A stretch of 64,000 bases of DNA from Fibrobacteria bacterium (lineage in GTDB: Bacteria; Fibrobacterota; Fibrobacteria; UBA11236). Under the pieces are notes generated by a model. The model was given only the letters and a program-made list of their open reading frames with translations, had not been told where the DNA came from and did no database searches. The stretch lies in contig JAYTSD010000045.1 in NCBI GenBank assembly GCA_043745805.1, forward strand, positions 80,505 to 144,504. Reading direction: 5' to 3'. Positions 3,409-62,833 of this stretch are shown here, piece after piece. Within the stretch, counting starts at the first letter, position 1. The number at the start of each line of letters is the position of its first letter. A program made the translations under genes and the position numbers.

Positions 3409-3485
3409 CGGGATGTGGCTCAGTCTGGTAGAGTACTTGAATGGGGTTCAAGTGGTCGTGGGTTCGAATCCCGCCATCCCGACCA
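3409..3485 (+). tRNA. tRNA-Pro (anticodon GGG)
   Basis: Manually folded cloverleaf. Acceptor stem CGGGATG/CATCCCG, D-stem GCTC/GAGT, anticodon stem CTTGA/TCAAG with loop ATGGGGT (U33, G37), T-loop TTCGAAT and an encoded CCA. Confidence 0.85.
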
Positions 3486-3490
3486 GAATT

Positions 3491-3526
3491 AAAAAAACGG
3501 CAGTTTTTAACAACTGCCGTTTTTTC
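3491..3526 (+). terminator. rho-independent terminator after tRNA-Pro
   Basis: Stem ACGGCAGTT / AACTGCCGT followed by TTTTT. Confidence 0.7.
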
Positions 3527-5980: not shown

Positions 5981-7357
5981 TTGATTGACAAAATATCGTA
6001 TCAACCTATTGATACTTTAAAGCTCTCCGAACTCATCGCTTCGCTTAGCCATGCTTTGGATATGACTGAGGGGCAACCTGCTGGGCATTGTATTCGTAGT
6101 TGTTGGATAGGCATACACATTGGGAGAACGATCCAACTCGAAGAAAAAATATTACGTGATTTATATTACACTTTACTCTTGAAGGATTTAGGCTGTAGTA
6201 GTAATGCGGCGCGCATTTGTGAATTGTACTTGTCTGATGATTTACAATTCAAACGCAATTTTAAATTGATCAATAGTGGAAGTATTGCGCAAGTTTTGGA
6301 TTTCGTTTTCAAAAATACCGCTTCTGGTTCGCGTCTTCCTCAGCGTTTAACTTCGCTGATTAATGTTATGCGCAATGGGTCGGAAATTACGCAGGAAATG
6401 ACGCAAACTCGCTGCACGCGCGGTGCGGATATTGCTCGGCAATTACGTTTTAGCGAAGCTGTTGCGGAGGGAATTTATAATCTCGATGAACATTGGGATG
6501 GGGGAGGTCATCCGGGCCATTTGAAAAAGGAACAGATCCCATTATTCTCACGCATTGCCTTATTGTCACAAGTGATAGACGTGTTTCATTTTTCAGGCGG
6601 AAAAGAAACAGCCTTAAAAGAAATTGCCGAACGCAGTGGTAAATGGTTTGATCCGCAATTAGTGAAAGCTTTTCAACAAGTCGCAGATAAGAAAGAATTT
6701 TGGGAAGGGTTGATTGCAACTGATTTGCAAAAAACTTTGCTTTCCTTAGAACCTGGTTTACAAACGGTTTCTTTGGACGATGATTTTTTGGATGAAATTG
6801 CGGCTGCATTTGGACAGGTCGTGGATTCAAAAAGTCCTTATACAGCAGGCCATAGTGAACGTGTGGCGGTATATGCCGAATTGATTGGGCAAGAACTGGG
6901 TTTAGATAATAATTATCGGCGATGGCTAAAACGCGGCGCCTTATTGCATGACTTGGGAAAGCTAGGCGTAAGCAATACCATACTGGATAAACCTGGTAAA
7001 TTAGATGAGGAAGAATGGAAACAAATTCGTTTACATCCAGGGTTAACCGAACAAATTTTAGTGCAAATGCCAGCTTTTCGAGAATTGGCTTTAGTGGCAG
7101 GGGCACATCATGAAAAATTGGATGGTACAGGTTACCCTAAAAAAATGTGTGGTGAAGAAATCACTTTGGGTACACGCGTAATTACCACGGCGGATATATT
7201 CGATGCCATTACCGCAAATCGGCCCTATCGAGGCCCAATTCCCGTGGCTAAGGCTTTGGATATGATGGAGGCGGAAATAGGAGTTGCCATTGATGCGCAA
7301 TGCTTTGCCGCCTTAAAAACATCTTTGAATCGGCTGCCTGAAAACGCACCCAAATAA
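5981..7357 (+). CDS. HD-GYP domain protein (putative c-di-GMP phosphodiesterase) with about 270-aa N-terminal domain of unknown function
   Basis: HDLGK and HHEKLDGTGYP motifs are present. The ORF-track start is a TTG, and the true start may be a downstream ATG. Confidence 0.8.
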   Translation: MIDKISYQPIDTLKLSELIASLSHALDMTEGQPAGHCIRSCWIGIHIGRTIQLEEKILRDLYYTLLLKDLGCSSNAARICELYLSDDLQFKRNFKLINSGSIAQVLDFVFKNTASGSRLPQRLTSLINVMRNGSEITQEMTQTRCTRGADIARQLRFSEAVAEGIYNLDEHWDGGGHPGHLKKEQIPLFSRIALLSQVIDVFHFSGGKETALKEIAERSGKWFDPQLVKAFQQVADKKEFWEGLIATDLQKTLLSLEPGLQTVSLDDDFLDEIAAAFGQVVDSKSPYTAGHSERVAVYAELIGQELGLDNNYRRWLKRGALLHDLGKLGVSNTILDKPGKLDEEEWKQIRLHPGLTEQILVQMPAFRELALVAGAHHEKLDGTGYPKKMCGEEITLGTRVITTADIFDAITANRPYRGPIPVAKALDMMEAEIGVAIDAQCFAALKTSLNRLPENAPK

Positions 7358-8335: not shown

Positions 8336-10788
8336 TGCCTAAGGTTTCGGGATTCCTGAAGCAAAATCAATGTAGGTATCGATACCTGTCCCTAATTTTT
8401 TTGCTGGGAATATTATTAGGGAATGATCTTTATGCAGAAGAAGTTAATAGTAACCTCAATATTACCTTCAAAGCTAATTCAGATTCTTTAACGTTGGAGT
8501 TACCGGACGCGCGCGTAATAGCTAAAAAGAAAAACCAAACAGCGGAAAGTATTAAAAGCGATTTCGTGCGTAAAATCCCCAGCACCTTAAATGATCCTTT
8601 GCGAGTAATTGCTTTCACTCCTGGCGTTACGGTGCAAAATGATTTGAATGTGCGGCCATTTATTCGTGGCGGTGACGCGGAACAAACGGAAGTGGTGATG
8701 AATGGAATCGCTTTATTACAACCTTATCATGTAGGAGGCGTATTCTCAATTTTTAATTTAAGCACATTGGAGTCTGTTGAGTTATATCGTGACGATTTTC
8801 CTGTAGAATATCCCGGGGTATTATCCGGAGTTGTGAATTTGAAAAACAAAAATCCTTTCGAAAGTGAATCGCATGTTAATGCGAATATCTCCTTAGTTCG
8901 TGGCGATGCTTTTGCTGAATTACCCATTATTAAAAATCAATTGAGTGTGTATGGTGCGGCCCAAGCTTTTTTATTCAACCGTTCTTTGCGCGGCTTACTA
9001 AATGCAAGCTCAGCTGCTTCTAGCGATAGTACTTTTCAAGAAGATATACAGGGTTATCGCGAACATATTAATTTACCAGAATTTCAAGATTATCATTGGG
9101 GTGCCGCTTATGCAGTAAATGATAACTTGCATTTCCATTATAATGGAAACTTTTCTTTAGATGATTATGCTGTACTAATTCCTCGGCAGGCGAATATTTT
9201 ACATGGCTTATCACCCGGGCCTTCCAGCCCACCGTTGGTGCCAGAAAAGGAAATTAAACGTACACAAAAGCTTTCGGTAGACAGTGTGTCGGCGGTTAAT
9301 ATCAATAATCAAATGCATTTATGGAATATGAGTTGGGATATTAATTCCCAGCATTTTTTAGAAAATAATTTTGGCTTTCAATCGCAAAACTGGGATGTGG
9401 GTTTTAAAAAAGGTGCTGGTGTAACTGCCTACTCCAATAAGCCTTTGGCACTTTCTGAAGCTACGCGCATTTTTAATTATCAGCTCGTGGATCATTATAC
9501 ACTATCGGAAAGTAATCAATTAAAATGGGGACTAAGTTATGATTATAAACAACAAAAGTATAATGCTGAATTGCCTTATGTTCTTTATGATGTTGTAGTT
9601 AATAGTAATATCGATATGTTAGCGGATTTGGGAAGTTTTTCGCCTTCTGGTTTTACTATTGAAAAGGACGATAGCAGTAAATCTAATTTAGACTATTTGG
9701 GAGATTATCCGGCACGTATACGTTTTTCCCATTCCGGTGAATTAACCGATCATTTCGCTAGTTTGTTTTTTTCTCAAACCTTAAAAACCTCTTCGGGCTC
9801 TTTGTCTTATGGACTGCGAGGAGAATATCAAAATAGAACACAAGAGTTTTTCCCTGCGCCGCGCTTGTCTTATCGATGGAATGTAGATCCCAAAAATGAA
9901 TTGGTTTTTAATTCGGGACTTTATTCCCAAAATAATTTGCCTTATTATCAAAGAGATGAAAATAATAATTTGCAATCTGAAAAATCAGCCCAAGTGGGTT
10001 TACAATGGTCGCATGAATTTTCCAAAGGGTATCGCTTAGTAGTTGATAATTATTATAAATACTACTATGACTTGGTTTCCTCTAATTTAGTTCCCAATAA
10101 TACTATTGATTTGCAAAGCTTATTATTGCCGATGCCACGATCAAAGCTGTCCGCTAGCGAATTGCAGAATTTAAAAAGTGTCTTAGATACCACGAAAAAC
10201 TTTTCGGGACTTTCCGATTCAATTCAACAATTAGCGTATGCAAATTTTGGTGGGTTAAATTTTGCTTATAATAACAGTGGCAAAGGTAATAGTGTAGGGA
10301 CGGAGCTGGCTTTTTATTATGATCCCACAAATGTATGGAGTGGATGGGCTTCCGTTGATTTAAGTTTTTCTAATCGCCAAGATGTATCAGATCAACCTTA
10401 TTATGCGTTTGCCAATCATCGCCCTTTGATTTTGAATTGGGTCAATACTTTTACTATGCCTAGTAATTATAGTCTCAGCTTTACTTATCGGTGGGCTATG
10501 GGTCAATCATATACGCCTTATTCAGGCACTTCGGAAGATAAAAACTTACAGCCGATTATTGTGGGTGCGCGTAATGCCGGACGCTTGTCGCCGTATAGTC
10601 GCTTGGATATGCGCTTGGCGCATAATACGCATTGGCGCAATAGTAATTTTAAAGCTTATATTGAAATTTGGAATGCGATGAATAATCCAAATTATTTTGC
10701 ACGCGATAAGGAAACCGGCCAATTAAAATCTGCTCAACTTAATTGGCCTTTCCCTTTATTGTTTTTGGGCTTGAACTGGGAAATATGA
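8335..10788 (+). CDS. TonB-dependent outer-membrane receptor
   Basis: Plug-domain motifs (DPLRVIAFTPGVTV...IRGG...VVMNGIALLQPYHVGG) are followed by a long beta-barrel region. The start was chosen at the ATG overlapping the upstream stop; the ORF-track start at 8323 is in the same frame. Confidence 0.7.
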   Translation: MPKVSGFLKQNQCRYRYLSLIFLLGILLGNDLYAEEVNSNLNITFKANSDSLTLELPDARVIAKKKNQTAESIKSDFVRKIPSTLNDPLRVIAFTPGVTVQNDLNVRPFIRGGDAEQTEVVMNGIALLQPYHVGGVFSIFNLSTLESVELYRDDFPVEYPGVLSGVVNLKNKNPFESESHVNANISLVRGDAFAELPIIKNQLSVYGAAQAFLFNRSLRGLLNASSAASSDSTFQEDIQGYREHINLPEFQDYHWGAAYAVNDNLHFHYNGNFSLDDYAVLIPRQANILHGLSPGPSSPPLVPEKEIKRTQKLSVDSVSAVNINNQMHLWNMSWDINSQHFLENNFGFQSQNWDVGFKKGAGVTAYSNKPLALSEATRIFNYQLVDHYTLSESNQLKWGLSYDYKQQKYNAELPYVLYDVVVNSNIDMLADLGSFSPSGFTIEKDDSSKSNLDYLGDYPARIRFSHSGELTDHFASLFFSQTLKTSSGSLSYGLRGEYQNRTQEFFPAPRLSYRWNVDPKNELVFNSGLYSQNNLPYYQRDENNNLQSEKSAQVGLQWSHEFSKGYRLVVDNYYKYYYDLVSSNLVPNNTIDLQSLLLPMPRSKLSASELQNLKSVLDTTKNFSGLSDSIQQLAYANFGGLNFAYNNSGKGNSVGTELAFYYDPTNVWSGWASVDLSFSNRQDVSDQPYYAFANHRPLILNWVNTFTMPSNYSLSFTYRWAMGQSYTPYSGTSEDKNLQPIIVGARNAGRLSPYSRLDMRLAHNTHWRNSNFKAYIEIWNAMNNPNYFARDKETGQLKSAQLNWPFPLLFLGLNWEI

Positions 10789-47576: not shown

Positions 47577-48428
47577 ATGAAAACAAGTATTCTTGCTGGT
47601 ATTGTGCTGGCTGCAGGTATTTCTTTGGCATCAGCAACCGTGGTTACAAGTGGCGCAACTGCCGTCGACTTGGCAAATACCATTGTCGGAACAGGTATTT
47701 CCATCTCGGGAGCAGCTTATTCTGGTTCAGCTGCACAAAACGGAACATATACTGGTTCCACGGTTGAATCTCAAGGTCAATCTCTTTTAAGCACTGGAAT
47801 TGTTCTTTCCTCTGGAAGTGCAGCTACTTTAAATGGTACGTCAAATACGGTAACCAATAGCACTTTAGCAGTTAACGGAGCAGGCGATGCAAATTTAAAT
47901 AGCCTTATCCCAGGTTTTAGCACTTTTGATGCCGCTACCTTAGAATTTGATTTCATCGCTGCAGGTACCGGTACGGTTACCGCTTCTTTTTGGTATGTAT
48001 TTGGTTCAGAAGAATATAATGAATATGTAAACACAAGTTTTAATGATGTATTCGGCTTCTTCTTGGACGGATCGAATGTCGCTTTAATTCCGTCCACAAC
48101 GACTCCAGTATCCATTAATAATGTGAACGCAGGTTCGAATGCTACTTATTACAATAACAATAGCCCTGGTCCATTCGCAACTGAAATGGATGGTTTCACA
48201 AAGCCATTATTTGTTACCTTTACTGTTGCCGGTGGCTCAACTCATCATATGAAATTGGCTATTGCTGATGCAGGTGATACAGTTTTGGATTCATGGGTTA
48301 TGATTGGTGGCAATAGCTTTACCAATCAACCTCCAGTTGAAGCTGTACCAGAACCTACAACTCTAGCACTTTTTGCTGTAGGCTTAATCGGCTTTGCAGG
48401 AATCGCTCGTCGTCGCGGCTTAGTTTAG
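47577..48428 (+). CDS. PEP-CTERM sorting-domain secreted protein
   Basis: Signal peptide, a Thr/Ser/Gly-rich body and a C-terminal VPEPTTLALFAVGLIGFAGIARRRGLV, which is the canonical PEP motif plus TM helix plus Arg cluster. Confidence 0.8.
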   Translation: MKTSILAGIVLAAGISLASATVVTSGATAVDLANTIVGTGISISGAAYSGSAAQNGTYTGSTVESQGQSLLSTGIVLSSGSAATLNGTSNTVTNSTLAVNGAGDANLNSLIPGFSTFDAATLEFDFIAAGTGTVTASFWYVFGSEEYNEYVNTSFNDVFGFFLDGSNVALIPSTTTPVSINNVNAGSNATYYNNNSPGPFATEMDGFTKPLFVTFTVAGGSTHHMKLAIADAGDTVLDSWVMIGGNSFTNQPPVEAVPEPTTLALFAVGLIGFAGIARRRGLV

Positions 48429-48593: not shown

Positions 48594-48670
48594 TGCGGGG
48601 TGGAGCAACCCGGTAGCTCGTTGGGCTCATAACCCAAAGGTTTCAGGTTCAAATCCTGACCCCGCTACCA
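48594..48670 (+). tRNA. tRNA-Met (CAU), initiator-type (tRNA-fMet)
   Basis: Cloverleaf folded by hand. The anticodon loop is CTCATAA, and the three consecutive G:C pairs closing the anticodon stem (GGG/CCC) are present. A11:U24 is present and position 1:72 is unpaired (U-U). These are bacterial initiator hallmarks. CCA is encoded. Confidence 0.8.
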
Positions 48671-49527: not shown

Positions 49528-50229
49528 TTAATAGTATTCGCTTAAAATCACTCGCTGGAAAATTTCGAAATATTCTTCTCCGCGCTTTTCCATATCGAGC
49601 GGTTTATTTAAAAATTCATAAAAGCGTCCTTGGCGTAAAGTTTTATGCATAAGATTATCATCACCCGCAGGATTACCCGTGATCAGCACAAATTTTAAAA
49701 AGGGTTTACTTTTGTGGATTAAATCGCAAAGTTCATTGCCGCTCATTTGTGGCATTACTTCATCAGTAATCACTAATACTACTTCGCTATTTTGCAAAAT
49801 AAATTGTGCCGCTTCTTGTGGGTTTTGAAAGGTTTTTAAATTCAGGCGCTTGCCATATTTGCGTTTGAAAAGAAATAGATTATCCTCTTCATCATCTACA
49901 TAAACGACCAAGGGATTATTTAAACCATGATGTATACAAGAAAAAATATGATCGGCCATTTGCCCTAAGGTTTTATAATGCCCCATATCCATGGGTGTAC
50001 CGCGGTACATCTCCTGCATGGCAAACATCATGGCAATATTAATAGTGATGCCCCCAAAGCGATGTTTTAATTCCTGGTCTAAAAGGGCTATGGTTTCTTT
50101 TTGTATATGGCAATCAAGCAATGCGCATTCGCTATTGCGTAGGACTGGCTGTGGAACAAAGGCGGGATTTTCTCCAGCTAATTTGTCGAGTACGCTTAGT
50201 AAAATCTCAAAAATTCGCGGTGAACGCAT
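49528..50229 (-). CDS. single-domain response regulator: N-terminal ACP-like (serine-less) domain fused to a CheY-type receiver (paralog 2)
   Basis: The C-terminal half has all the REC hallmarks: DD pair (VDDEEDN), phospho-Asp (ITDEVMP), Thr (ITGN) and Lys (NKPLD). There is no output domain. The N-terminal roughly 100 aa align to the paralog at 57672..58349. Confidence 0.6.
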   Translation of the reverse strand: MRSPRIFEILLSVLDKLAGENPAFVPQPVLRNSECALLDCHIQKETIALLDQELKHRFGGITINIAMMFAMQEMYRGTPMDMGHYKTLGQMADHIFSCIHHGLNNPLVVYVDDEEDNLFLFKRKYGKRLNLKTFQNPQEAAQFILQNSEVVLVITDEVMPQMSGNELCDLIHKSKPFLKFVLITGNPAGDDNLMHKTLRQGRFYEFLNKPLDMEKRGEEYFEIFQRVILSEYY

Positions 50230-52395: not shown

Positions 52396-54498
52396 ATGAA
52401 AACCACGCCGAATGCAAAGTATTGCCGAACCTTGAGTAAACAATATTGTTCCTTAAGTCTGTGGATTTTTTGCTTCAGCTTATTTTTGCATACGGTTGCC
52501 GCGAATTCTTTCGCTCAAGATTCACTGAATAAAGCGGATTATTATCAGCCCACCATTCTAAAAGTTTGGGAGAAAACCATTGCAACCAATAGGGGCGTGC
52601 ATGCTTGGAATAGCGATAATGATGGCCTATTAGTTTTTCAGGAATGGATAGCCTCAATGATTTTAGCACGTCATAGTTCCGAAGTCGCACAAATTAAACT
52701 GGGACGTAAATTGGAAAATTATGTGGTGGGTGGAAATATTAAACCCTTAGGATATGTGGGTACCACCTTGCCAGTTCCAGGTTTTGGCGAGGGAGATTTT
52801 GATATGACTTTATTGAGTTGTATGACCTTGCTCGGCACCTTTGAACGCGACACTTTAATGTTAACGCATAAAACCTATGTGCATTTATTACGTCAGGTAA
52901 TTTGTCTTTGGGGACAAACTCCCAAAGAAAATTTCGATATTTTTTTTCTGAGTTTCCCAGAAACAGAAAATCATTTATTCATGTCGGAAAGTATTCGCTA
53001 TCTTACCAATCAAATATTGTATGAAAATCCTCGGCATTTAATTGCCATTAAACATTTGCGTGACTCCTTAACTCATGCCGGCATTGAGTTAAATAATAAT
53101 AATGGGGTAGTGCGGCGGTTACTATTAAAAAATATGCAATTGGTGCTTTCACGCGGGCTTTTTGAATTTAATGCAAAGGTTTATCAACGCTTTACTTTAC
53201 ATGCTTTGGATAATCTCTATAGCTTTGCTTCGGATTCAACCCTAGTGGCGGCTTCGCAAAGTGTTTTGCATTATTTAGCCACCAAATTTGCTTTCCAAAG
53301 TTTTAATGGTATTCGCTTTGGGCCTTATCGACGTAACTCGGAAAAATTTGCGGATTCCTCCTTAATTGACAGTGATGCGGCATGCAGTTTTTTTGCTATT
53401 CAAAGTGGCAAGTTTAATTGGGATAATAATTATTGGTTTGCGCATCGTTCCCATGCCGCTATGGCACTTTATTCCACGGTATTAAAATATAGAGTACCCG
53501 ATATATTATTGGATTTTATGCAAAATCGTGAAAACCCTTATTGGGCTTTATTTAGCAATGGTATTAATGTGGAGGCTAATGGTGGGCAAGCTTTGGAAAG
53601 TTACTATGGTGCGCCACATTTTTTGATGAGCGCTGGAGGTCAGTACACGGCATATGCGGGACGGAATTTTCCTACGCAGGGTTTTTGGTTAAAAAAAGCG
53701 CCTTGGGTTTATGATGTGGTAAGTCGTTCGAGTTCGGTCATTTTAGATCCGGCTATTAAGCAACCTTATGCTTTAACGGATATTCTGCATTTTAAAGGCG
53801 CACAATGGAAAGCCAATAATTTAGCTCTGCATCAAAATTTTCTGTATGGTTATGCCGAGGCTAGCCATCGTAAGGATTGGCCACAAGCTATTCCGAGTGA
53901 TTGGCAACAAGATGGGGAAATTATGGATGGCGGAGGATTTGAATTTCGCTTTTATGATCAAAGCCGGCAAGGCGTATTTATAGTGCTAACGCGCTTGAAA
54001 AACCTGCCTTCATGGCGGTTTTGGGAGCGAACTTCTACGGTAAGAGGCACTATCGAAGTGGTGGATACGGCGGAAGCTCATTCCCTAGTTCTTTTTAAGG
54101 CAAAAATGCGCCAACAAAACATGCAAACATTAGGTAATCTATTTACTGCAAAACGGTTATATACCACCTACAAGGGTGTTAAATTAACGCTTAATCCAAG
54201 CTATGATAATACCCATACGGGCATTGTAAAAATACAAAGCCCACAAGATAAGGCGATTTGGAAACAAGGGTTATCTCCAGTATTCAAAAAAAGTAATAGC
54301 TTATTGCAGGTGAATTGGATACAAGCCGATGGCTTATTAGGGCAGGAAATTGCCTCTGGAGATGGTCAAGGTAACTTACAGGTGATTAATCCGCATTTGC
54401 AGCAAGAATTAAATATTTGCTTTAAAGAATGGTGGAATCCATGGATAGTTATGCAGGCTTGGCCGGTCCTTGAAAACAATATCAATAATGTGAAATGA
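52396..54498 (+). CDS. large secreted hypothetical protein (700 aa), possibly polysaccharide-lyase/heparinase-II/III-like
   Basis: Signal peptide and a long Trp/Tyr-rich polypeptide. The family guess is speculative. Confidence 0.45.
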   Translation: MKTTPNAKYCRTLSKQYCSLSLWIFCFSLFLHTVAANSFAQDSLNKADYYQPTILKVWEKTIATNRGVHAWNSDNDGLLVFQEWIASMILARHSSEVAQIKLGRKLENYVVGGNIKPLGYVGTTLPVPGFGEGDFDMTLLSCMTLLGTFERDTLMLTHKTYVHLLRQVICLWGQTPKENFDIFFLSFPETENHLFMSESIRYLTNQILYENPRHLIAIKHLRDSLTHAGIELNNNNGVVRRLLLKNMQLVLSRGLFEFNAKVYQRFTLHALDNLYSFASDSTLVAASQSVLHYLATKFAFQSFNGIRFGPYRRNSEKFADSSLIDSDAACSFFAIQSGKFNWDNNYWFAHRSHAAMALYSTVLKYRVPDILLDFMQNRENPYWALFSNGINVEANGGQALESYYGAPHFLMSAGGQYTAYAGRNFPTQGFWLKKAPWVYDVVSRSSSVILDPAIKQPYALTDILHFKGAQWKANNLALHQNFLYGYAEASHRKDWPQAIPSDWQQDGEIMDGGGFEFRFYDQSRQGVFIVLTRLKNLPSWRFWERTSTVRGTIEVVDTAEAHSLVLFKAKMRQQNMQTLGNLFTAKRLYTTYKGVKLTLNPSYDNTHTGIVKIQSPQDKAIWKQGLSPVFKKSNSLLQVNWIQADGLLGQEIASGDGQGNLQVINPHLQQELNICFKEWWNPWIVMQAWPVLENNINNVK

Positions 54499-54801: not shown

Positions 54802-56178
54802 TTAACTCTCTTCGTGAAAATCAATTTTTGCATCCGCATGCACACTGAAACTTCCCTGTCCATTGATTACGATATGTAAACCAATTTTTTGTGTTTCTAA
54901 TTTTGCTTTTAAACGATATAAGCGAATTTCAAAATTTGGTTTCTTTTGTCCGGCTAAAAGATTTTGATCTTTTTTGAAACTGCGATATTCAAATTCCTTT
55001 TTGCCTTTGTGAATCAATTCAATTAAAATATTGCGTAGTATTTTTGCAGAAACCGTTTTTAAAAAAATTTTTCCATTTAAAATGAGTTGTACTTCTTGAG
55101 GTCGATAAATAAAAACAATATTCGCTTCAAGCTGACTAATTAAATTTTGATGCTTGCGCATTAATGCTCCAGCAAAAATCTTTTCATGTTGTGCCGCATC
55201 TTCGACTAAGTGCTTGAGAAATAGGCCATTTTTTAACTGGACTTTTTGATGCTTAACACAAGTCATGTATATAGGAGCGCTGTATACACACTGGGCGTGG
55301 AGCAATATGCGCTGGCGTAAGGGGCAGAAAAAATCCTTTTCCATAAGGATTACTTGCGCTGCGGGAATTTTATATTTCGCTAAGCTTAACTCATGGCTTT
55401 TTAAAAAATCAGTGAAGGCTATTTTGTGACCGTAACATTCACCGTTTATCCATAATTGTTGACCTTTAACGCGTACGGAATGATCGGGTAAAATATTATT
55501 TATAGAACGAATATCAGATAAATATTGCAACTGTGCAAAAGGCGCCAAGCCTAAAATTTTGGGAGCTTTTAAAATTTGGGGGCCGACTACAAAATCAAAA
55601 TTAAAATTAAAGGCATGGGTAAAGGTTTTGTCGGGAATATAAACTAAATAGGATTGTACTGATTTTTTTCCCTCCACCTTTTTTACGCGGCGATGAATAT
55701 GCCCTGGCAAATATTTTTCCGTACACACCGAAATCAAATCAAAAACCATATCATGTGTATCCGTGGCATTGAAGGCCTTTTGCATCAAGGGATAAAACCA
55801 AGCTAAAATTTCTTTACCAGGAAAATAGGTAGCGGCATTATTTCGATAAAGCAGTTTTTCTATGAATTTATTTGGAGAAACCCCCTTGCTGATTAAAAAA
55901 GGTTCCAAATCATTGACCACATAATAATTCCATCGCAATGGAATTTTTCCTTCACAGTGCCAAAGAAAATGCAGCAGCTCGGCGCCAATCAATATTTTAT
56001 CGGGATAAACAATAGGGTGTGCTTCCCAAAACTCTAAAATCCATTCCCGTGGAAATAATTGCAACATAGTCACATACGAGGCGCGGTGAAAATCGTGAAT
56101 GGTTAAGGGATCCTGCATGAGATAGCGGGTTTGTTCAAGGGGCGCTTCGTTATCTATCAGCAGTGCTTCTTTGATCAT
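54802..56178 (-). CDS. regulator with novel roughly 350-aa N-terminal domain fused to a C-terminal OmpR/PhoB-type winged-helix DNA-binding domain (tandem paralog B)
   Basis: The C-terminal roughly 90 aa (...LKTVSAKILRNILIELIHKGKKEFEYRSF...NFEIRLYRLKAKLE...IGLHIVINGQGSFSV) follow the Trans_reg_C pattern (L-P-E, LL, G, the RLRKKLE-like helix and the TVRGxGYxL-like wing). The N-terminal part has conserved Cys/His (CPLRQRILLHAQCVYSAPIYMTCVKHQ). Confidence 0.55.
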   Translation of the reverse strand: MIKEALLIDNEAPLEQTRYLMQDPLTIHDFHRASYVTMLQLFPREWILEFWEAHPIVYPDKILIGAELLHFLWHCEGKIPLRWNYYVVNDLEPFLISKGVSPNKFIEKLLYRNNAATYFPGKEILAWFYPLMQKAFNATDTHDMVFDLISVCTEKYLPGHIHRRVKKVEGKKSVQSYLVYIPDKTFTHAFNFNFDFVVGPQILKAPKILGLAPFAQLQYLSDIRSINNILPDHSVRVKGQQLWINGECYGHKIAFTDFLKSHELSLAKYKIPAAQVILMEKDFFCPLRQRILLHAQCVYSAPIYMTCVKHQKVQLKNGLFLKHLVEDAAQHEKIFAGALMRKHQNLISQLEANIVFIYRPQEVQLILNGKIFLKTVSAKILRNILIELIHKGKKEFEYRSFKKDQNLLAGQKKPNFEIRLYRLKAKLETQKIGLHIVINGQGSFSVHADAKIDFHEES

Positions 56179-56192
56179 AGGAGTTGCTTTCC

Positions 56193-57545
56193 TTAACCTA
56201 TTTCGCGGAAATCGATTTTCCGATCACAGATTAAAGTAAAAGTTCCGCGTCCATTTTTCACTATACTTAGGCCTAATTTTTCTTGGTCGAGTTTTTCCAT
56301 TAGGCGATAAAAACGGATTTCAAAATTGGAATTTTTTTGGTGGTTGGATATTTCAAAATCGGCTTTGAACTCTTTATACTCAAATTCAGTTTTACCCTCG
56401 CGAGTATAGGCGAGAAGAATATCCTTTAAAATTTTGGCGGGGGTATTTTTTACAAAATGTTTTCCATTGAGGGATAAACTTTGATCTTGAGCATGATAGA
56501 ACGCACGTATTTTATTTTCTAATTGCTTTACTAATTCCCCATGTTTTTTTTCCAATTCACTTTTGGAAAAGGATTTTTCTAAATCGGCATCTTCAACCAA
56601 ATGTTGTAAGAAACTGATTTTTTTCTTTTGCAACTTATGATGTTGCATGCAAATCATGTATAGCGGCGCACCATAAGCGCAATTGGCATAGAGGACAATG
56701 CGTTTGCGGAGTGGACAATAATAATCTTTGTGCAAATGAAATACTTCGGCATCGGGCGCATCAATTTTGCCTAAATCAATATCCAATTTTTTCAATAAAG
56801 CATAAAAAGTGGTTTTTTTGCCAATCCAATCCCCTTCGACATAGCAATCCGAGCCTTTATATTCGGCCTTTCCGGTCCATAGTACATCGTCTACGGTGCG
56901 TGTATCGCAAATATATTCAACGTTATTAAAAGCAGGCAAAGAAAGAATCTTGGAACTGGATTTGAATTGTTCTCCGGCCACAAAATCGAAATTAAATTTT
57001 ACCATATTGCTAAAATTTTTATCGCTACAATAAACCAAATAAGAATGTACCACATTTTCTTTTTCAACTTTTTTGACACGGCGACTTATATGTTGCGGTA
57101 ATAATTTCGAGGTAAAAATATCAATCAGTTTATAAGCCATATCCCAAATATCATAGGCATTAAATACTTTGCCCATAAGCGGATAAAACCAAGACAGTAT
57201 AGTTATACCTGGGATATACGTAGCTTGATTGTTACGGAAGAGAATTTTTTTAATGAAGCTATTTCCGTAAATACCTTTGGAAATTAAAAAGGGTTCAATA
57301 GCGTCACCCGTGGTATAATCCCAAGTGACAGGGACTTTATTATTCGCTTGCCATAAATGCTTAACTAATTCATCATCCGCAATGAGGTGTGTGCCCTCTT
57401 GAATAGGATATGCAGACCAAAACTCTTCCAGCCAATCCAATGGAAACTCAGCCAGCATGGTAAGATAAACGGAGCGTTGAAAATCATTAGTGGTTTTTAG
57501 CTTTTTATAAGCATTAGTCCATTTATTAATGAGCTGTTGTCCCAA
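56193..57545 (-). CDS. regulator with novel N-terminal domain fused to a C-terminal OmpR/PhoB-type winged-helix domain (tandem paralog A)
   Basis: This is a full-length paralog of 54802..56178 (shared blocks PFLISKG, SYLVY, FNFDFV, DYYCPLRKRIVLYANCAYGAPLYMICMQHH). The C-terminal ...NFEIRFYRLMEKLD...LGLSIVKNGRGTFTL matches the OmpR-type wHTH. Confidence 0.55.
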   Translation of the reverse strand: MGQQLINKWTNAYKKLKTTNDFQRSVYLTMLAEFPLDWLEEFWSAYPIQEGTHLIADDELVKHLWQANNKVPVTWDYTTGDAIEPFLISKGIYGNSFIKKILFRNNQATYIPGITILSWFYPLMGKVFNAYDIWDMAYKLIDIFTSKLLPQHISRRVKKVEKENVVHSYLVYCSDKNFSNMVKFNFDFVAGEQFKSSSKILSLPAFNNVEYICDTRTVDDVLWTGKAEYKGSDCYVEGDWIGKKTTFYALLKKLDIDLGKIDAPDAEVFHLHKDYYCPLRKRIVLYANCAYGAPLYMICMQHHKLQKKKISFLQHLVEDADLEKSFSKSELEKKHGELVKQLENKIRAFYHAQDQSLSLNGKHFVKNTPAKILKDILLAYTREGKTEFEYKEFKADFEISNHQKNSNFEIRFYRLMEKLDQEKLGLSIVKNGRGTFTLICDRKIDFREIG

Positions 57546-57671: not shown

Positions 57672-58349
57672 TTAAAACTTGGCGAAGTAAATTAAGCCTA
57701 AAACCAAATTCAAATACTCTTCACTTTTGTTTTCTAAGTCCAATGGCTTATTAATGAATTCATAAAAACGGTTGTGACGCAAGCTTTTATACAATAAATT
57801 GCTATCGTCATCGGGATTGCCGGTGATTAAAATGAATTTCAAATAAGGTTTGGTTTTATGCACTTCATCGCAAAGTTCATTACCTCCCATAAGAGGCATA
57901 ACTTCATCGGTTATGACTAAAGCGACATCGGAATTAGTTCTTATAAATTCCAAGGCTTCCAATGGTTTAGTAAAAGTTTTGAGAGTTATTTTTTTGCCTA
58001 ATTTGCGATTGAAAACAAAAAGATTGTCTTCTTCATCGTCGACATAAACTACGAGAGGGTTTTTATTAGTGGTAACAAAAAGTTTTTCCAAGTGCTCCAA
58101 TAGTTTTGCAACGGTAAGATAGGGAAACTCGGTTGGGTTTAAATAATTTTCCAGGTTTAAACGTTTTCCCTCATATCGTTTTTCCAATTCATCTTTAATT
58201 TCAGAAAAGGCAACTTGATCCACACCAATATCTTCTAGAAAAACTTTATTCGTTTCGCATTCCAACAATGCGGGTAGTGTTGCGCCATTGTTTTTAAAAA
58301 CATCATTTAATATTTCATATACTTCTTGTTTTGCCATGAGAACCCTCAA
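57672..58349 (-). CDS. single-domain response regulator: N-terminal ACP-like (serine-less) domain fused to a CheY-type receiver (paralog 1)
   Basis: The N-terminal roughly 95 aa read like an acyl carrier protein (EVYEILNDVF...TNKVFLEDIGVDQVAFSEIKDELEKRYEG...LTVAKLLEHLEK), with the phosphopantetheinyl Ser of the DSL motif replaced by Gln (DQV). The C-terminus is a complete REC domain. Confidence 0.6.
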   Translation of the reverse strand: MRVLMAKQEVYEILNDVFKNNGATLPALLECETNKVFLEDIGVDQVAFSEIKDELEKRYEGKRLNLENYLNPTEFPYLTVAKLLEHLEKLFVTTNKNPLVVYVDDEEDNLFVFNRKLGKKITLKTFTKPLEALEFIRTNSDVALVITDEVMPLMGGNELCDEVHKTKPYLKFILITGNPDDDSNLLYKSLRHNRFYEFINKPLDLENKSEEYLNLVLGLIYFAKF

Positions 58350-58380: not shown

Positions 58381-59556
58381 TTAAATCATTAAACTTTCAA
58401 TTTTTAATTCCTTAATAGCTTCTGCGGTAACGATAGCCGTTTTTATAATAGCTTCACGAGTAATTTCGGCGTGAACTGAAAAACGAGCAAAACTTTTATC
58501 ACGCGCTGAAGCTGGAGGAGCAAATACTGAAAATAAAATTCCTTTTTCTTTCATTTTTCCATAAAGGGCGCTAGCTGTATAGGGGCCTTTAAAAAATACG
58601 GATACGATTTGACAATTACTTGGACCAGTGGGAATACCACGTTGATTCAACTCATCCCTTAAAAGTTGAGCCATATCCATGCAATGCTGCGCTCTTTGCG
58701 GTTCCCGTAAAATAACATTCAAAGCGGCTCTGTGACCCGCAGAGTTTGGTTCAGAAGGTGAAGAACTAAAAATAATAGAGTGACAACGAAATCTTAAAAA
58801 ACGAATGGCTTGTAGGCTTGCTGCGATAAAGCCTCCATTGCCGCCAATAGCTTTGGACAAGCTAACCGTTCGAAAAGGTACTCTATCTTGTAACCCTAAT
58901 GAAACGGCTAAACCACCGCCATTTTCTCCAATCATTCCAAAGCTATGGGCTTCATCTAGTACCAAGGCGCAGTTATACTTTTCACATAAAGCAATGTAGG
59001 TGGGAAGATCAGCAACTGATCCATCAGTGCTATAATAAGCATCGATGCAAACAATTCCCGTTCCATCTTTTTTGATTCTTTTTTCCAAATATTCCGGATC
59101 ATTATGTTTGATTAAAACAGGTCTTCCTGAAGAAAGTTTCGCACCGGACCATAATGACGCATGCGCTTGATGATCAATGTAAATAGGCAAATCAGGTGTA
59201 GCTATTGCTTCTAATAAACCGACATTAGCGCACCAACCAGCAGTAGTTACGATTACGTCTTCGCTTTTGAGGCTTTTTTTTAATACTTCCCCAAATTTTC
59301 CATGTTCACCGGTGTCGGCTCCAAAAACCAATGAGGCTACGCTACCTGTGCCAATATTGTTATTCGCTTCATCCTTGGCTGCTATTACCTCGGGATGGCG
59401 AGACAAGCGCAAATAATCATTTTGATGTAATTCAATATAGGCTTTTGAATCTCCAGGTTGATCGAATGGATTCGGTTGATGGCCATCCATAAAATTCAAC
59501 CAGTCCTCATAATGTTTGGTTAACCATGGCGTTGTATCTAAATCATCGGAAAGCAT
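58381..59556 (-). CDS. CqsA/LqsA-family alpha-hydroxyketone autoinducer synthase (PLP-dependent alpha-oxoamine synthase)
   Basis: Block-by-block similarity to Vibrio CqsA as I recall it: LHQNDYLRLSRHP vs LQSNDYLALANHP; GWCANVGLL...IYIDHQAHASLWSGA vs GWNANVGLL...VYIDFFAHMSLWEGA; IVCIDAYYSTDG...CALVLDEAHSFG...NGGGL vs IIVVDSIYSTLG...CALLVDESHSLG...NGAGL; and the PLP lysine in SLSKA. The 391-aa length matches CqsA at about 389 aa. Confidence 0.8.
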   Translation of the reverse strand: MLSDDLDTTPWLTKHYEDWLNFMDGHQPNPFDQPGDSKAYIELHQNDYLRLSRHPEVIAAKDEANNNIGTGSVASLVFGADTGEHGKFGEVLKKSLKSEDVIVTTAGWCANVGLLEAIATPDLPIYIDHQAHASLWSGAKLSSGRPVLIKHNDPEYLEKRIKKDGTGIVCIDAYYSTDGSVADLPTYIALCEKYNCALVLDEAHSFGMIGENGGGLAVSLGLQDRVPFRTVSLSKAIGGNGGFIAASLQAIRFLRFRCHSIIFSSSPSEPNSAGHRAALNVILREPQRAQHCMDMAQLLRDELNQRGIPTGPSNCQIVSVFFKGPYTASALYGKMKEKGILFSVFAPPASARDKSFARFSVHAEITREAIIKTAIVTAEAIKELKIESLMI

Positions 59557-59698
59557 GGAACGGTCCTTTTATTATCTGTATAAATGGTTTGGATTTTGTG
59601 GTTTTTTGTGTATGTGAATGAATGTCTTGCTCAAATATGCTTCCGGGCCTTAATATTGCATTTGAAGCTAGAATTTTTGGCTTTTGAGGAAAAGGTTG

Positions 59699-61258
59699 AT
59701 GCTGAGAAAATTCTTTTCGAAGGATTTTTGGAATGGCCGTTCGGAATACCACCGAATGCTTTTTAATACTGACTATTCCTTTCAAAAACGTTTTATGATG
59801 GTACTGGTATATATAGGCGCACCAGCCAATATATTTTTTCATTACTATGAACAAGATCAAGGTTATCAAGATTCTACCATTGGACGTTATGCTATTTCTC
59901 TGCTATTAGTTACACTAGTTTTCCTACCGAAGATTATCAAGCAAAATAAATGGCAAATATCGTACTGGGAACTCACACTTTTCATTTTTTTCCCATGTAT
60001 GAACACCGCCTTCATGCTGATGAATCATGTTAATCAGTATTGGTTTTCCACCTTTATTCTGGATATGGTATTTTTGGGCATTTTTACCAAATGGTATATG
60101 ATCCCTTTCCATTACATTTTTGGTAGTGCGGCAATAACATGGTGGTACTTTCACAATACAGGATATGATGCGAAATTATTTCAGGCCAATTTAAATGCGC
60201 ATGTGGCAGCCTTTCTAGGAACATGCGTTGCATCGGGAGTCGTTTTAACTATTGAATATGTTAATAAAAAATCTACTGAAGCTAAATTAGCGCTATCTAA
60301 AGCGGAACATGATAGGCTCAGAACCTTAGAGCTACAAAAATCAAATGAAGAATTAAAAAAACGTGAGGAAATCATTAAGGTGTATGTGCGCCCATCCTTG
60401 TATGAAGAGTTAGCGGCGGGACATGACCCTCTCAAATTTCAACCTATTATGCTGCCTAAGGCGATTATGTTTTGCGACATTCGCGACTTCACTTATTTGA
60501 CGGAAATTCTTACCCCTTACGAAAAACAAACTTTTCTCAATCAATATTTCACTTTGATGAATCATGCCATTGTCAATAATGAAGGCGAAGTAGATAAAAT
60601 TGTGGGCGATTGTATTATGGGTCTTTTTCCTAATGGCCGCGCAGCCGTACATGCCGCATTGGCCATGCGTAAGGCCTTGCACACATTTAATAATATGATG
60701 TACAACAGTGGTCGTCGAAAAATCCCTAATGGTATTGGCATAGCCAAGGGCGAAGTGATGTTAGGCAATTTCGGATCTAATGAAAAACTAGATCGCACGG
60801 TGATTGGTGAAGCGGTGAATATAGCTTCACGCTTGGAATCTAAAACCAAAATGTATGGTGTGGAAATTGTGGTGACTCAGGATGTGGTCGATGAAATGCA
60901 GGGCTATCCCTATATGCGTTGGATTGACAATGCTAAGGTAAAAGGTTCGAGCCGACCTTTGCAGCTTTATGAAATTTATGGACATCAACCAGATGAAGTG
61001 ATTGCCTATAAAGAAAAGACTAAAGTCATATTCGAAAAGGCTTTGACTATTTATTTCAATAAAGGTTTTAAAGATGCTTTACGCATGTTTCAATCTATGT
61101 TATCCGAGGTTCCACCGCATAAATACAAAGCGAATGCACCCATGGATAATATTCTCAGCTATTATATTGAGCATTGCCGAACTTGGGTGAATGACTCCGC
61201 AGGGGCTTGGGACTTGCGGAATAAATGGGATGGCATTCATGAGTTTAAAGAAAAGTGA
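59699..61258 (+). CDS. membrane-anchored class III nucleotidyl (adenylate-type) cyclase: 6-TM N-terminal domain, coiled-coil linker and catalytic domain
   Basis: Six hydrophobic helices lie in the first roughly 190 aa, then KLALSKAEHDRLRTLELQKSNEELKKRE, then the CHD motifs FCDIRDFT, KIVGDCIMG and GEAVNIASRLES. The start was placed at the first ATG, which has an AGGAAAAGG RBS; the ORF-track TTG start at 59684 is in the same frame. The substrate-position residues look Lys/Thr, which is adenylate-cyclase-like. Confidence 0.8.
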   Translation: MLRKFFSKDFWNGRSEYHRMLFNTDYSFQKRFMMVLVYIGAPANIFFHYYEQDQGYQDSTIGRYAISLLLVTLVFLPKIIKQNKWQISYWELTLFIFFPCMNTAFMLMNHVNQYWFSTFILDMVFLGIFTKWYMIPFHYIFGSAAITWWYFHNTGYDAKLFQANLNAHVAAFLGTCVASGVVLTIEYVNKKSTEAKLALSKAEHDRLRTLELQKSNEELKKREEIIKVYVRPSLYEELAAGHDPLKFQPIMLPKAIMFCDIRDFTYLTEILTPYEKQTFLNQYFTLMNHAIVNNEGEVDKIVGDCIMGLFPNGRAAVHAALAMRKALHTFNNMMYNSGRRKIPNGIGIAKGEVMLGNFGSNEKLDRTVIGEAVNIASRLESKTKMYGVEIVVTQDVVDEMQGYPYMRWIDNAKVKGSSRPLQLYEIYGHQPDEVIAYKEKTKVIFEKALTIYFNKGFKDALRMFQSMLSEVPPHKYKANAPMDNILSYYIEHCRTWVNDSAGAWDLRNKWDGIHEFKEK

Positions 61259-61387: not shown

Positions 61388-62833
61388 ATGAGTTATAAAG
61401 CAGCTCCAAAGCATTATGATTTTGTAATAATCGGTAGCGGCCCTGCAGGCCATGCGGCAGCTATTTGCGCAGCGAAGGCGGGAGTGAAAACGGCCATTAT
61501 TGATAGACGCGAGCAGCGTGGTGGCGTGTGTTTACATGCAGGTACCATACCGAGTAAAACTTTACGTGAAGCGGTGATGCATTTGCGTGGCGTGCGTTTG
61601 CGATCTTTTTATAAAGAAAAAATGAGTGGGCAAGGTCAAATTACTTTGGAAGATTTGCATGTGCGTATTGATAAGGTTTTAGCGCAACAAATGGATGTGC
61701 TGGATCATCAATTGCGTCGCAATGGCGTAGATATTTATTATGGTCAGGCTGAGTTTGAAGATGGCCATACATTGCGTTTAACCACCTTGGAAGACGGCGA
61801 AGTAGGACGCTTACAAGCCGGTAAAATTTTGGTTTGTACTGGCACGGTGCCGCGTCGCCCACCGGAAATCCCTTTTGATCAAGAAGTTATTTTCGATAGT
61901 AATTTTCTTTTTTCTTCCAAAAATAAACGCCTCAATTTGCCTGAGTCCTTAATTATTGTGGGTGCCGGAGTAATAGGGACCGAGTATGCCAGCATTTTTG
62001 GATCGCTCGGTTGCAAAGTTTGGTTGGTGGATCAACGCGATGAATTATTTCGTTTTGTGGATGATGAAATCGCTTTGCATCTCAGTAAGGATTTGCAAAA
62101 TGAAGGCGTAGAATTACGCATGGGACATAAAATTGGAAAAATTTCTCGCAGTCCCTCCGGCCAAGCGCGCTTGGAATTAGACGGTGGGGAAGTGATTGAA
62201 GCCGATGTGCTCGCTTATACCATGGGCCGCACGGCTTGTGTGGAACCCTTACATTTGGAACGCGTAGGCGTTGTGCTTACTAAACATGGCACGGTGGAAG
62301 TGAATGAAACTTTGCAAACAGGACATCCCGATATTTATGCCGCAGGCGATGTGATTGGCTTCCCCGCTTTGGCTTCCACGAGTTCTAGTCAAGGGATTAT
62401 TGCCGCGCAAGATGCTTTAGGCTTGCCTGCGCCTACCAAAGCCACGATTTTTCCTTTTGCGATTTATTCCATACCGGAAATTGCCATGGTTGGTAAAATG
62501 GAACGTGAATTGGTCGCAGATAAAATTCCTTTTGCTAAAGGCGTTACGCTTTATCGAGAAAACCCCAAAGCAGCAATTATTGGCGATGAAACCGGCGCGG
62601 TGAAAATTCTTTTTTGTCCAGACACACATAAAATTTTTGGTATTCATATTATTGGAGACTTGGCTTCGGAATTAATTCATATCGGTTTAATGGTAATGAG
62701 TTTGGATGGCACGGTGGATACTTTTGTGAATAATGTATTCAATTATCCCACTTTAGCTTCCGCATATAAAATGGCTGCACGCAATGGCTTAAATAGTTTG
62801 GAAGGAAAGAATACCACAAGGGATATTAGCTAA
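61388..62833 (+). CDS. sthA: soluble pyridine nucleotide transhydrogenase (SthA/UdhA-like flavoprotein disulfide reductase family)
   Basis: FAD motif DFVIIGSGPAG, GTIPSKTLREAV and a C-terminal FNYPTLASAYKMAARNGLN, which closely follows E. coli SthA. There is no redox-active CxxxxC pair, as expected for SthA rather than Lpd. Confidence 0.75.
   Translation: MSYKAAPKHYDFVIIGSGPAGHAAAICAAKAGVKTAIIDRREQRGGVCLHAGTIPSKTLREAVMHLRGVRLRSFYKEKMSGQGQITLEDLHVRIDKVLAQQMDVLDHQLRRNGVDIYYGQAEFEDGHTLRLTTLEDGEVGRLQAGKILVCTGTVPRRPPEIPFDQEVIFDSNFLFSSKNKRLNLPESLIIVGAGVIGTEYASIFGSLGCKVWLVDQRDELFRFVDDEIALHLSKDLQNEGVELRMGHKIGKISRSPSGQARLELDGGEVIEADVLAYTMGRTACVEPLHLERVGVVLTKHGTVEVNETLQTGHPDIYAAGDVIGFPALASTSSSQGIIAAQDALGLPAPTKATIFPFAIYSIPEIAMVGKMERELVADKIPFAKGVTLYRENPKAAIIGDETGAVKILFCPDTHKIFGIHIIGDLASELIHIGLMVMSLDGTVDTFVNNVFNYPTLASAYKMAARNGLNSLEGKNTTRDIS

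Follow-up and report, generated by a model that had tools for sequence, protein, structure and literature searches.

A Tandem Gene Pair of Fibrobacteria Predicted to Join an H-NOX/V4R-Like Fold to an OmpR-Type Winged Helix

Response regulators of the OmpR/PhoB family, such as BaeR, PhoP and AdeR, combine a receiver domain (REC) with a DNA-binding domain covered by the Pfam model Trans_reg_C. The tandem genes FAM_A and FAM_B, located at positions 54802–57545 of a 64,000-nucleotide stretch of DNA from a Fibrobacteria bacterium (GenBank assembly GCA_043745805.1, contig JAYTSD010000045.1, positions 80,505–144,504 of the forward strand; the whole stretch is referred to as the window, and coordinates given without a locus label are its own), encode proteins with a predicted output domain of the same type but with no receiver, and hence no phosphorylation switch. 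Their regulatory module is instead a region of ~340 aa with an H-NOX/V4R-like predicted fold, and their DNA-binding domain is scored neither by Trans_reg_C nor by OmpR sequences of the PDB. We consider it probable that both proteins are soluble, cytoplasmic one-component regulators of transcription, belonging to an undescribed family and possessing a ligand-sensing N-terminus and an OmpR-type output.

Several described sensors share the fold class of the FAM N-terminal region. VirS of Mycobacterium tuberculosis is an AraC-family regulator, in which a hydrophobic drug acts allosterically by binding to the corresponding domain (PMC13234193). Its output (PDB 8rcw) is an AraC double helix-turn-helix (HTH), as opposed to the OmpR winged helix of FAM proteins; it also lacks the beta-rich Cys segment found in FAM and has no detectable sequence similarity to it. 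The same fold class includes Bet3/TRAPPC3 and the V4R sensors of XylR, DmpR and PoxR, and its internal cavities accommodate palmitate in TRAPPC3/Bet3 and phenols in PoxR (PMC10933270; PMC2253512). The outputs of XylR, DmpR and PoxR, composed of a sigma-54 AAA+ domain and a Fis-type HTH, are unlike that of FAM, and the structural scores of this group fall below those of H-NOX and VirS. Compared with bacterial H-NOX domains (Tt 1u4h, So 4u99 and Nostoc 6mx5), FAM proteins lack both the conserved heme-ligating His/YxSxR residues and sequence similarity; to our knowledge, H-NOX proteins occur alone or in fusions with MCP or cyclase domains rather than with DNA-binding domains. The models thus portray FAM proteins as working like VirS- or XylR/PoxR-type one-component regulators, with an output that follows the layout of OmpR-type response regulators.

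The position of the pair calls for comparison with another group of systems, CqsA/CqsS of Vibrio and LqsA/LqsS/LqsR of Legionella, which the window resembles in having a CqsA-like synthase and a receiver in one operon. We know of no cytoplasmic receptor-regulator described for CqsA/LqsA-type signals. Known alpha-hydroxyketone systems pair the synthase with signaling proteins (PMC3376566), membrane histidine kinases serving as their receptors (PMC3285556, PMC3376566). Unlike the CqsS and LqsS systems, the synthase of the window is adjoined by no sensor kinase and is flanked by a receiver protein and a divergently transcribed membrane cyclase.

Predicted architecture of the paralogous proteins

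FAM_A (56193–57545, minus strand), the first gene of the pair, begins with a TTG start codon preceded by a Shine-Dalgarno-like AAAGAGG and encodes a soluble protein of 450 aa; FAM_B (54802–56178, minus strand) encodes a protein of 458 aa with the same architecture. The two are 47% identical over 431 aligned residues with zero gaps (E 2e-147) and appear as sisters in a neighbor-joining tree, in agreement with the first-pass annotation of this DNA, which had described two adjacent full-length paralogs with the common blocks PFLISKG, SYLVY and FNFDFV; all three blocks are found in each protein. Both are real genes with homologs reaching E values down to 1e-190, and a protein identical to FAM_A is present in the database (P0001). 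A check of both proteins for transmembrane segments detected none.

A full-length AlphaFold model of FAM_A (pLDDT 88, pTM 0.82) contains an OmpR/PhoB-type winged helix at residues 345–450 (56196–56513, minus strand; ~54805–55122 in FAM_B). Three short strands, forming a three-stranded sheet, are followed in the model by helix a1, a short strand, helix a2, a low-confidence loop, a long helix a3, a beta-hairpin wing and a final strand; this predicted order of elements is that of OmpR/PhoB. The structural matches of the domain comprise AdeR (8.5) and PhoP (8.3), along with PmrA, AfsR, CpxR, CadC, ToxR and TcpP, and generic winged helices (ScpB, ORC2 and RPA32) rank below all of these OmpR-class proteins, covering 59–70 residues. 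Conservation across the whole protein also peaks in this domain: in an alignment of 153 full-length family members, the source of all conservation figures given here, A370 is kept in 98%, R411 in 89%, R414 in 93% and G434 in 99%, while position 433 is occupied by Arg in 75% and by Lys in 11%. When elements are matched by eye, with no computed alignment, R411, R414 and R433-G434 fall at H198, R201 and R219-G220 of PhoB; matched in the same manner, NFE[VI]RFYRLxEKL corresponds to TVDVHIRRLRKAL of PhoB, and GRGxF to the wing sequence RGTGY.

The N-terminal region can be divided into three parts, all on the minus strand. An H-NOX/V4R-like helical and beta-sheet fold spans residues ~15–250 of FAM_A (56796–57503; approximate limits drawn from secondary structure). 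It is followed by a small beta-rich segment (~255–310; 56616–56783) carrying C277, R280, R282, C289, Y291 and P294 as well as C299, H302 and H303, specific to the pair, and by a two-helix linker (~314–343; 56517–56606) containing H335, a residue conserved in 90% of members. A Foldseek search with the N-terminal region listed H-NOX first, with probabilities of 0.90–0.96; other matches include VirS, and the phenol sensor PoxR (5frw) and Bet3 (2cfh) are listed with lower scores than H-NOX and VirS. On this structural prediction, the region holds an H-NOX/V4R/VirS-like ligand-binding fold. Response_reg found no match in the paralogs or in 32 aligned members, and the N-terminal fold is not CheY-like; having no receiver, FAM proteins are not response regulators. 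The earlier description of an uncharacterized N-terminal domain of ~350 aa that is not a receiver is therefore right on the latter point, but the domain is not novel as such, its fold matching structures of the H-NOX/V4R/VirS class. Matches to known enzyme families, which the first-pass annotation had named as a threat to novelty, were not found.

With the ligand fold and the DNA-binding domain contained in one soluble chain of 450 aa, the model describes a one-component architecture, in which the classical receiver of OmpR-type proteins appears to be replaced by a direct ligand sensor. Since a fold with a ligand pocket is joined to an OmpR-type domain, FAM proteins are probably gene switches controlled by small molecules. 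The nature of the ligand may be reflected in the sequence HRRVKK, which opens the first sheet strand, stands where the propionate-binding motif Y-x-S-x-R would be expected and is invariant in the close subfamily; in the wider family, R155 is retained in 42% and R156 in 25%. Because this sequence is conserved in the close subfamily only, we speculate that it may relate to that subfamily's particular ligand.

The beta-rich segment had drawn attention in the first-pass annotation as a conserved C-x13-C-x9-C-x2-HH cluster and a candidate metal or ligand site. The actual spacing is C277-x11-C289-x9-C299-x2-H302-H303, and only the first two Cys are kept in the wider family (C277 in 80% and C289 in 81%, replaced by Ser or Thr where lost). 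C299 and H303 are unconserved, and position 302 is Tyr in 58% and His in 22% of members. With the spacing corrected and most of the residues variable, a four-ligand site is not a feature of the family; a redox or structural role is possible for the C277/C289 pair.

A word-indexed search yielded 34 relatives with 34–50% identity, none of them informatively named or assigned a Pfam domain; the database names read "hypothetical protein" throughout. The organism labels comprise only metagenome-assembled genomes (MAGs) of Fibrobacteria/Fibrobacterota and one MAG labeled Bifidobacteriales, and a metagenome scan returned only 3 loci. When 1.84 billion representatives were searched exhaustively with a profile, the family comprised 792 clusters, defined at 50% identity, at E ≤ 1e-3 and 228 clusters at E ≤ 1e-30. 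Nearly all members are 430–470 aa long and match the profile from end to end, and the two-part architecture can therefore be regarded as fixed. Neither Pfam nor NCBIfam has a model matching the two paralogs, 10 distant members or the 32 aligned members (E ≤ 10), and targeted literature searches returned no account of CqsA in Fibrobacter or of H-NOX with a winged helix. The combination of an H-NOX/V4R-like fold with an OmpR-type winged helix is thus undescribed in Pfam, NCBIfam and these literature searches, and we treat FAM as an undescribed family.

Genomic context of the pair and its relatives

FAM_A and FAM_B close a run of four minus-strand genes, separated by gaps of 31, 126 and 14 bp. 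The first gene of this operon encodes a CqsA-like alpha-oxoamine synthase dependent on pyridoxal phosphate (58381–59556), the second a receiver protein, RECx (57672–58349; PF00072, E 5e-10), which lies between the synthase and FAM_A; the placement of the pair directly after a CqsA-like synthase and a receiver, as first annotated, is thus accurate. The best NCBIfam model for the synthase is NF005526 (alpha-hydroxyketone autoinducer synthase), with 289.8 bits against a cut-off of 428 bits, and BioF scores 229 bits. Divergent from the operon is a gene encoding a membrane-anchored class III adenylate/guanylate cyclase (59684–61258, plus strand; PF00211, E 4e-15) with transmembrane-like segments, syntenic in 8 loci. 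A second receiver protein, RECx2, is encoded at 49528–50229 (minus strand), and its orthologs adjoin the cyclase gene in related loci.

Proteins of the window and of locus L008 were compared with all open reading frames of 20 fetched loci. A recurrent island core emerged, consisting of RECx2, the membrane class III cyclase, the divergently oriented alpha-oxoamine synthase and RECx; FAM genes are located a few kb or less from it in 8 loci, mostly Fibrobacterota MAGs (the window, L006, L008, L009, L011, L015, L017 and L018). RECx and RECx2 represent two conserved orthologous groups of receivers, with homologs in the seven loci listed besides the window. Their N-terminal domain of ~95 aa (LxDLGLDxxTLPEV...) resembles acyl carrier protein (ACP), with sub-threshold PF00550 matches (E 0.1–0.2) and no phosphopantetheine Ser, and their receiver part retains the canonical DD, D, T and K residues in an alignment of 16 homologs. 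One of these groups always follows the alpha-oxoamine synthase gene, and the other flanks the cyclase gene. The fusion of an ACP-like domain to a receiver beside an acyl-condensing enzyme is unusual.

FAM genes of related loci often form tandem arrays, with six copies in L018, five in L004, three in L010 and two each in L011 and the window. The arrays elsewhere contain several older paralog groups common to different MAGs, according to the neighbor-joining tree. Directly before the arrays, on the same strand, five loci encode a sensor-less histidine kinase of ~300 aa, composed of DHp and catalytic domains only (L004 2652–3593; L008 6183–7082; L010 318–1157; L011 178–1191; L018 3372–4397). Relatives of this kinase were found neither next to the pair nor elsewhere in the 64-kb window, where no full kinase census was made. 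A GAF kinase is often encoded nearby, divergently from a trio of FeeM-like, Haem_oxygenas_2 (CADD-like) and FeeM-like genes (L008 1–3542; L013 5272–9467; L015 11896–15911; L004 147–2473), which may constitute a second, lipid-amide signal pathway; the window contains neither the trio nor the GAF kinase.

The intergenic region from which the synthase operon and the cyclase gene diverge (59557–59683) is, from a reading of its sequence, a candidate regulatory DNA. Direct repeats TTGGGTTT, ~19 bp apart, occupy the matching place in L006 (~3480–3520) and L008 (~10590–10625), and similar ones are present in L011 (~6480–6510); in the window, only loose TTTGG/TGTGG repeats are seen (59585–59615). The direct repeats could be operator sites or promoter elements of the FCB group, of the TTTG ... 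TAnnTTTG type. A sigma-70 promoter scan gave fewer sites than shuffled controls.

Convergent to FAM_B, a gene at 52396–54498 (plus strand) encodes a protein of 700 aa with an N-terminal hydrophobic segment, which matched no Pfam or NCBIfam family and has no counterpart among the related loci. Farther away, a secreted protein ending in a PEP-CTERM-like sorting signal VPEPTTLALFAVGLIGFAGIARRR is encoded at 47577–48428 (plus strand), followed by a tRNA-Met gene (48594–48670, plus strand). On the other side, the gene at 61388–62833 (plus strand) encodes an SthA-like soluble transhydrogenase; its closest database relative is just 62% identical, and on this basis the window seems to derive from a poorly sampled lineage.

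Proposed regulator role and competing explanations

If FAM_A and FAM_B are one-component regulators, a small, probably hydrophobic molecule would fill the N-terminal pocket, and its presence would alter the arrangement or dimerization of the linker and DNA-binding domains. The protein would then use helix a3 and the wing, with R411, R414 and R433-G434, to contact repeated sites on DNA, activating or repressing transcription. More tentatively, the ligand of the close subfamily might be an acyl-derived signal made by the neighboring alpha-oxoamine synthase or, in relatives, by FeeM-like synthases, and the tandem paralogs might sense different variants of the signal or heterodimerize on similar DNA sites. 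The genomic context is consistent with regulators: FAM genes accompany a signaling island in 8 loci, and distant members stand alone, directly preceding a polysaccharide gene cluster or a gene for a giant surface protein (8090 aa), with others located among housekeeping genes or downstream of a nitroreductase gene. Such a distribution is expected of a versatile regulator family, one subfamily of which was recruited to the signaling island.

A number of results weigh against this interpretation. Trans_reg_C (PF00486) is unmatched in both paralogs at E ≤ 1 and in 32 members at E ≤ 10; a profile built from the last 111 residues retrieved zero OmpR-family chains from 177,635 PDB sequences at E ≤ 10; a search of the PDB with the full-length family profile named no domain; and hmmsearch and hhalign comparisons of the PhoB and OmpR DNA-binding domains with the C-terminal profile gave nothing. 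An OmpR-type protein that could serve for a comparison profile was not present among the comparison loci. The OmpR/PhoB domain recognized by the first-pass annotation hence holds by the fold and topology of the model but by none of the sequence profiles tried, including the comparison with Trans_reg_C that the annotation itself had proposed. In the N-terminal region, HNOB has no Pfam match at E ≤ 10 in the 32 members, and the family profile, compared with Tt H-NOX by hhalign, reached a probability of just 0.15%. Both fold assignments come from a predicted structure with ~10% identity to its matches. A separate hhalign pairing, of PhoB a1-b5-a2 with FAM residues 39–71 (probability 0.7%), was dismissed as chance. 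A shared operator motif did not emerge from the synthase–cyclase intergenic regions, the repeats of which are not separable from promoter elements.

Other observations speak against the link to the synthase in particular. The synthase has its tightest and most constant association with the receiver and the cyclase, the distance to FAM genes being variable. In L015 and L017, intact synthase cores are accompanied by FAM fragments only (L015 7705–8067 and 5915–6166; L017 1828–2046); a short FAM-matching fragment also lies beside the intact synthase-receiver-cyclase core of L006 (7629–8122), and L015 contains a fragment of the sensor-less kinase as well, which suggests that the FAM module is decaying in some lineages. 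The syntenic synthases are 23–32% identical between loci, compared with ~45–55% for the flanking receiver and cyclase, and find different best matches elsewhere, SPT/BioF in L008 (9236–10519) and PRK07505 in L006 (2140–3426); because the synthase subtype varies by locus, one shared product is unlikely. The membrane cyclase, whose place next to the synthase is that of the membrane receptor CqsS in Vibrio, could itself be the signal receptor, leaving FAM without the role of sole receptor. Finally, linkage to the synthase is limited to the close subfamily; distant members are solitary among unrelated neighbors, as illustrated by P0013, encoded next to a DUF3105 gene and a gene for a BTAD-AAA-TPR regulator with no synthase nearby. 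The N-terminal domain accordingly does not always accompany CqsA-like genes, a syntenic synthase of the CqsA-like type being found in this window only. Of the suggestion that the pair forms the output, and perhaps the ligand-binding part, of the synthase system, the regulator architecture is borne out by the models; binding of the synthase product is an inference, and a connection between FAM and this product is plausible.

Structural similarity to H-NOX domains, which are the best or joint-best matches, raises the question of whether FAM proteins are true heme-based sensors of gas or redox state (NO, O2), in which gas binding at the heme iron would control transcription through the fused DNA-binding domain. 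The vicinity of relatives also includes Haem_oxygenas_2/CADD-like genes, cyclases and histidine kinases, all of them typical partners of bacterial H-NOX proteins. We nevertheless find this explanation highly improbable. No conserved His was identified in residues 100–200 or in the helices that precede the first sheet strand (by alignment and secondary structure, not by residue-level superposition); the best candidate, position 154, has His in 48 of the 153 members (31%) and Ser in FAM_A, and the Y-x-S-x-R motif is absent. Heme binding is therefore unlikely on sequence grounds, the relevant helices having no conserved His and the motif being missing; the failed hhalign and HNOB searches point the same way, and the non-heme members of the fold, VirS, PoxR and Bet3, are judged to match equally well, the latter two at the lower scores mentioned above. 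A related proposal makes the H-NOX-like module the sensory partner of the sensor-less histidine kinase, tuning phosphotransfer to the ACP-like-receiver proteins, while DNA binding would be a secondary or additional function. Stand-alone H-NOX proteins do control adjacent kinases, and operons of H-NOX with a sensor-less kinase occur in proteobacteria; the kinase directly upstream of FAM arrays in five loci and the two conserved orphan receiver proteins within the island would suit such a role. It is still quite unlikely, since the window has no such kinase by the pair and no related one within 64 kb, distant members have no kinase neighbor, and the DNA-binding domain is the best-conserved part of the family.

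Redox or metal sensing through C277/C289 and nearby His residues, with the H-NOX-like part as a mere scaffold, draws on the ~80% conservation of each of these Cys, on the 90% conservation of H335 and on C299, H302 and H303, which the window pair adds. We judge it very unlikely, given the frequent loss of Cys (20%) to Ser or Thr, the prevalence of Tyr at position 302, the lack of conservation of C299 and H303, the presence of fewer than four conserved ligands and the incorrect spacing on which the site was originally proposed. Little probability is likewise left for a role outside transcription, in which the winged helix would bind protein or RNA, for instance in a scaffold or an enzyme of lipid-signal metabolism: the model includes the N-terminal sheet and the short a1–a2 strand specific to OmpR/PhoB, OmpR-class matches outrank every generic winged helix, Arg residues are conserved on a3 and the wing, and enzyme families are unmatched.

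Implications for Fibrobacterota signaling

The reading of FAM proteins as ligand-sensing one-component regulators gives an unannotated family of ~790 clusters a testable identity, that of regulators with an OmpR-type DNA-binding domain and no receiver. It would also illustrate that OmpR/PhoB-type domains can keep their fold while diverging beyond the reach of Pfam. Independently of the ligand, the comparison exposes a conserved island in uncultured Fibrobacterota-like bacteria, comprising the synthase, ACP-like-receiver proteins, the cyclase, the sensor-less kinase and arrays of regulators.

We further put forward, as a rather doubtful extension, that FAM proteins form a new class of receptor-regulators in the cytoplasm that respond to lipid-like autoinducers (alpha-hydroxy-ketones or amino-ketones made by CqsA-like or other alpha-oxoamine synthases, possibly also N-acyl amides from FeeM-like enzymes), with arrays of up to six paralogs serving multi-channel communication in Fibrobacterota-like bacteria. 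If the synthase product does bind to FAM proteins, these would be the first receptors of CqsA-type signals located in the cytoplasm, a "LuxR-type" counterpart for signals so far known to be sensed only by membrane kinases, and would offer an entry into the chemical communication of a phylum known almost exclusively through metagenomes.

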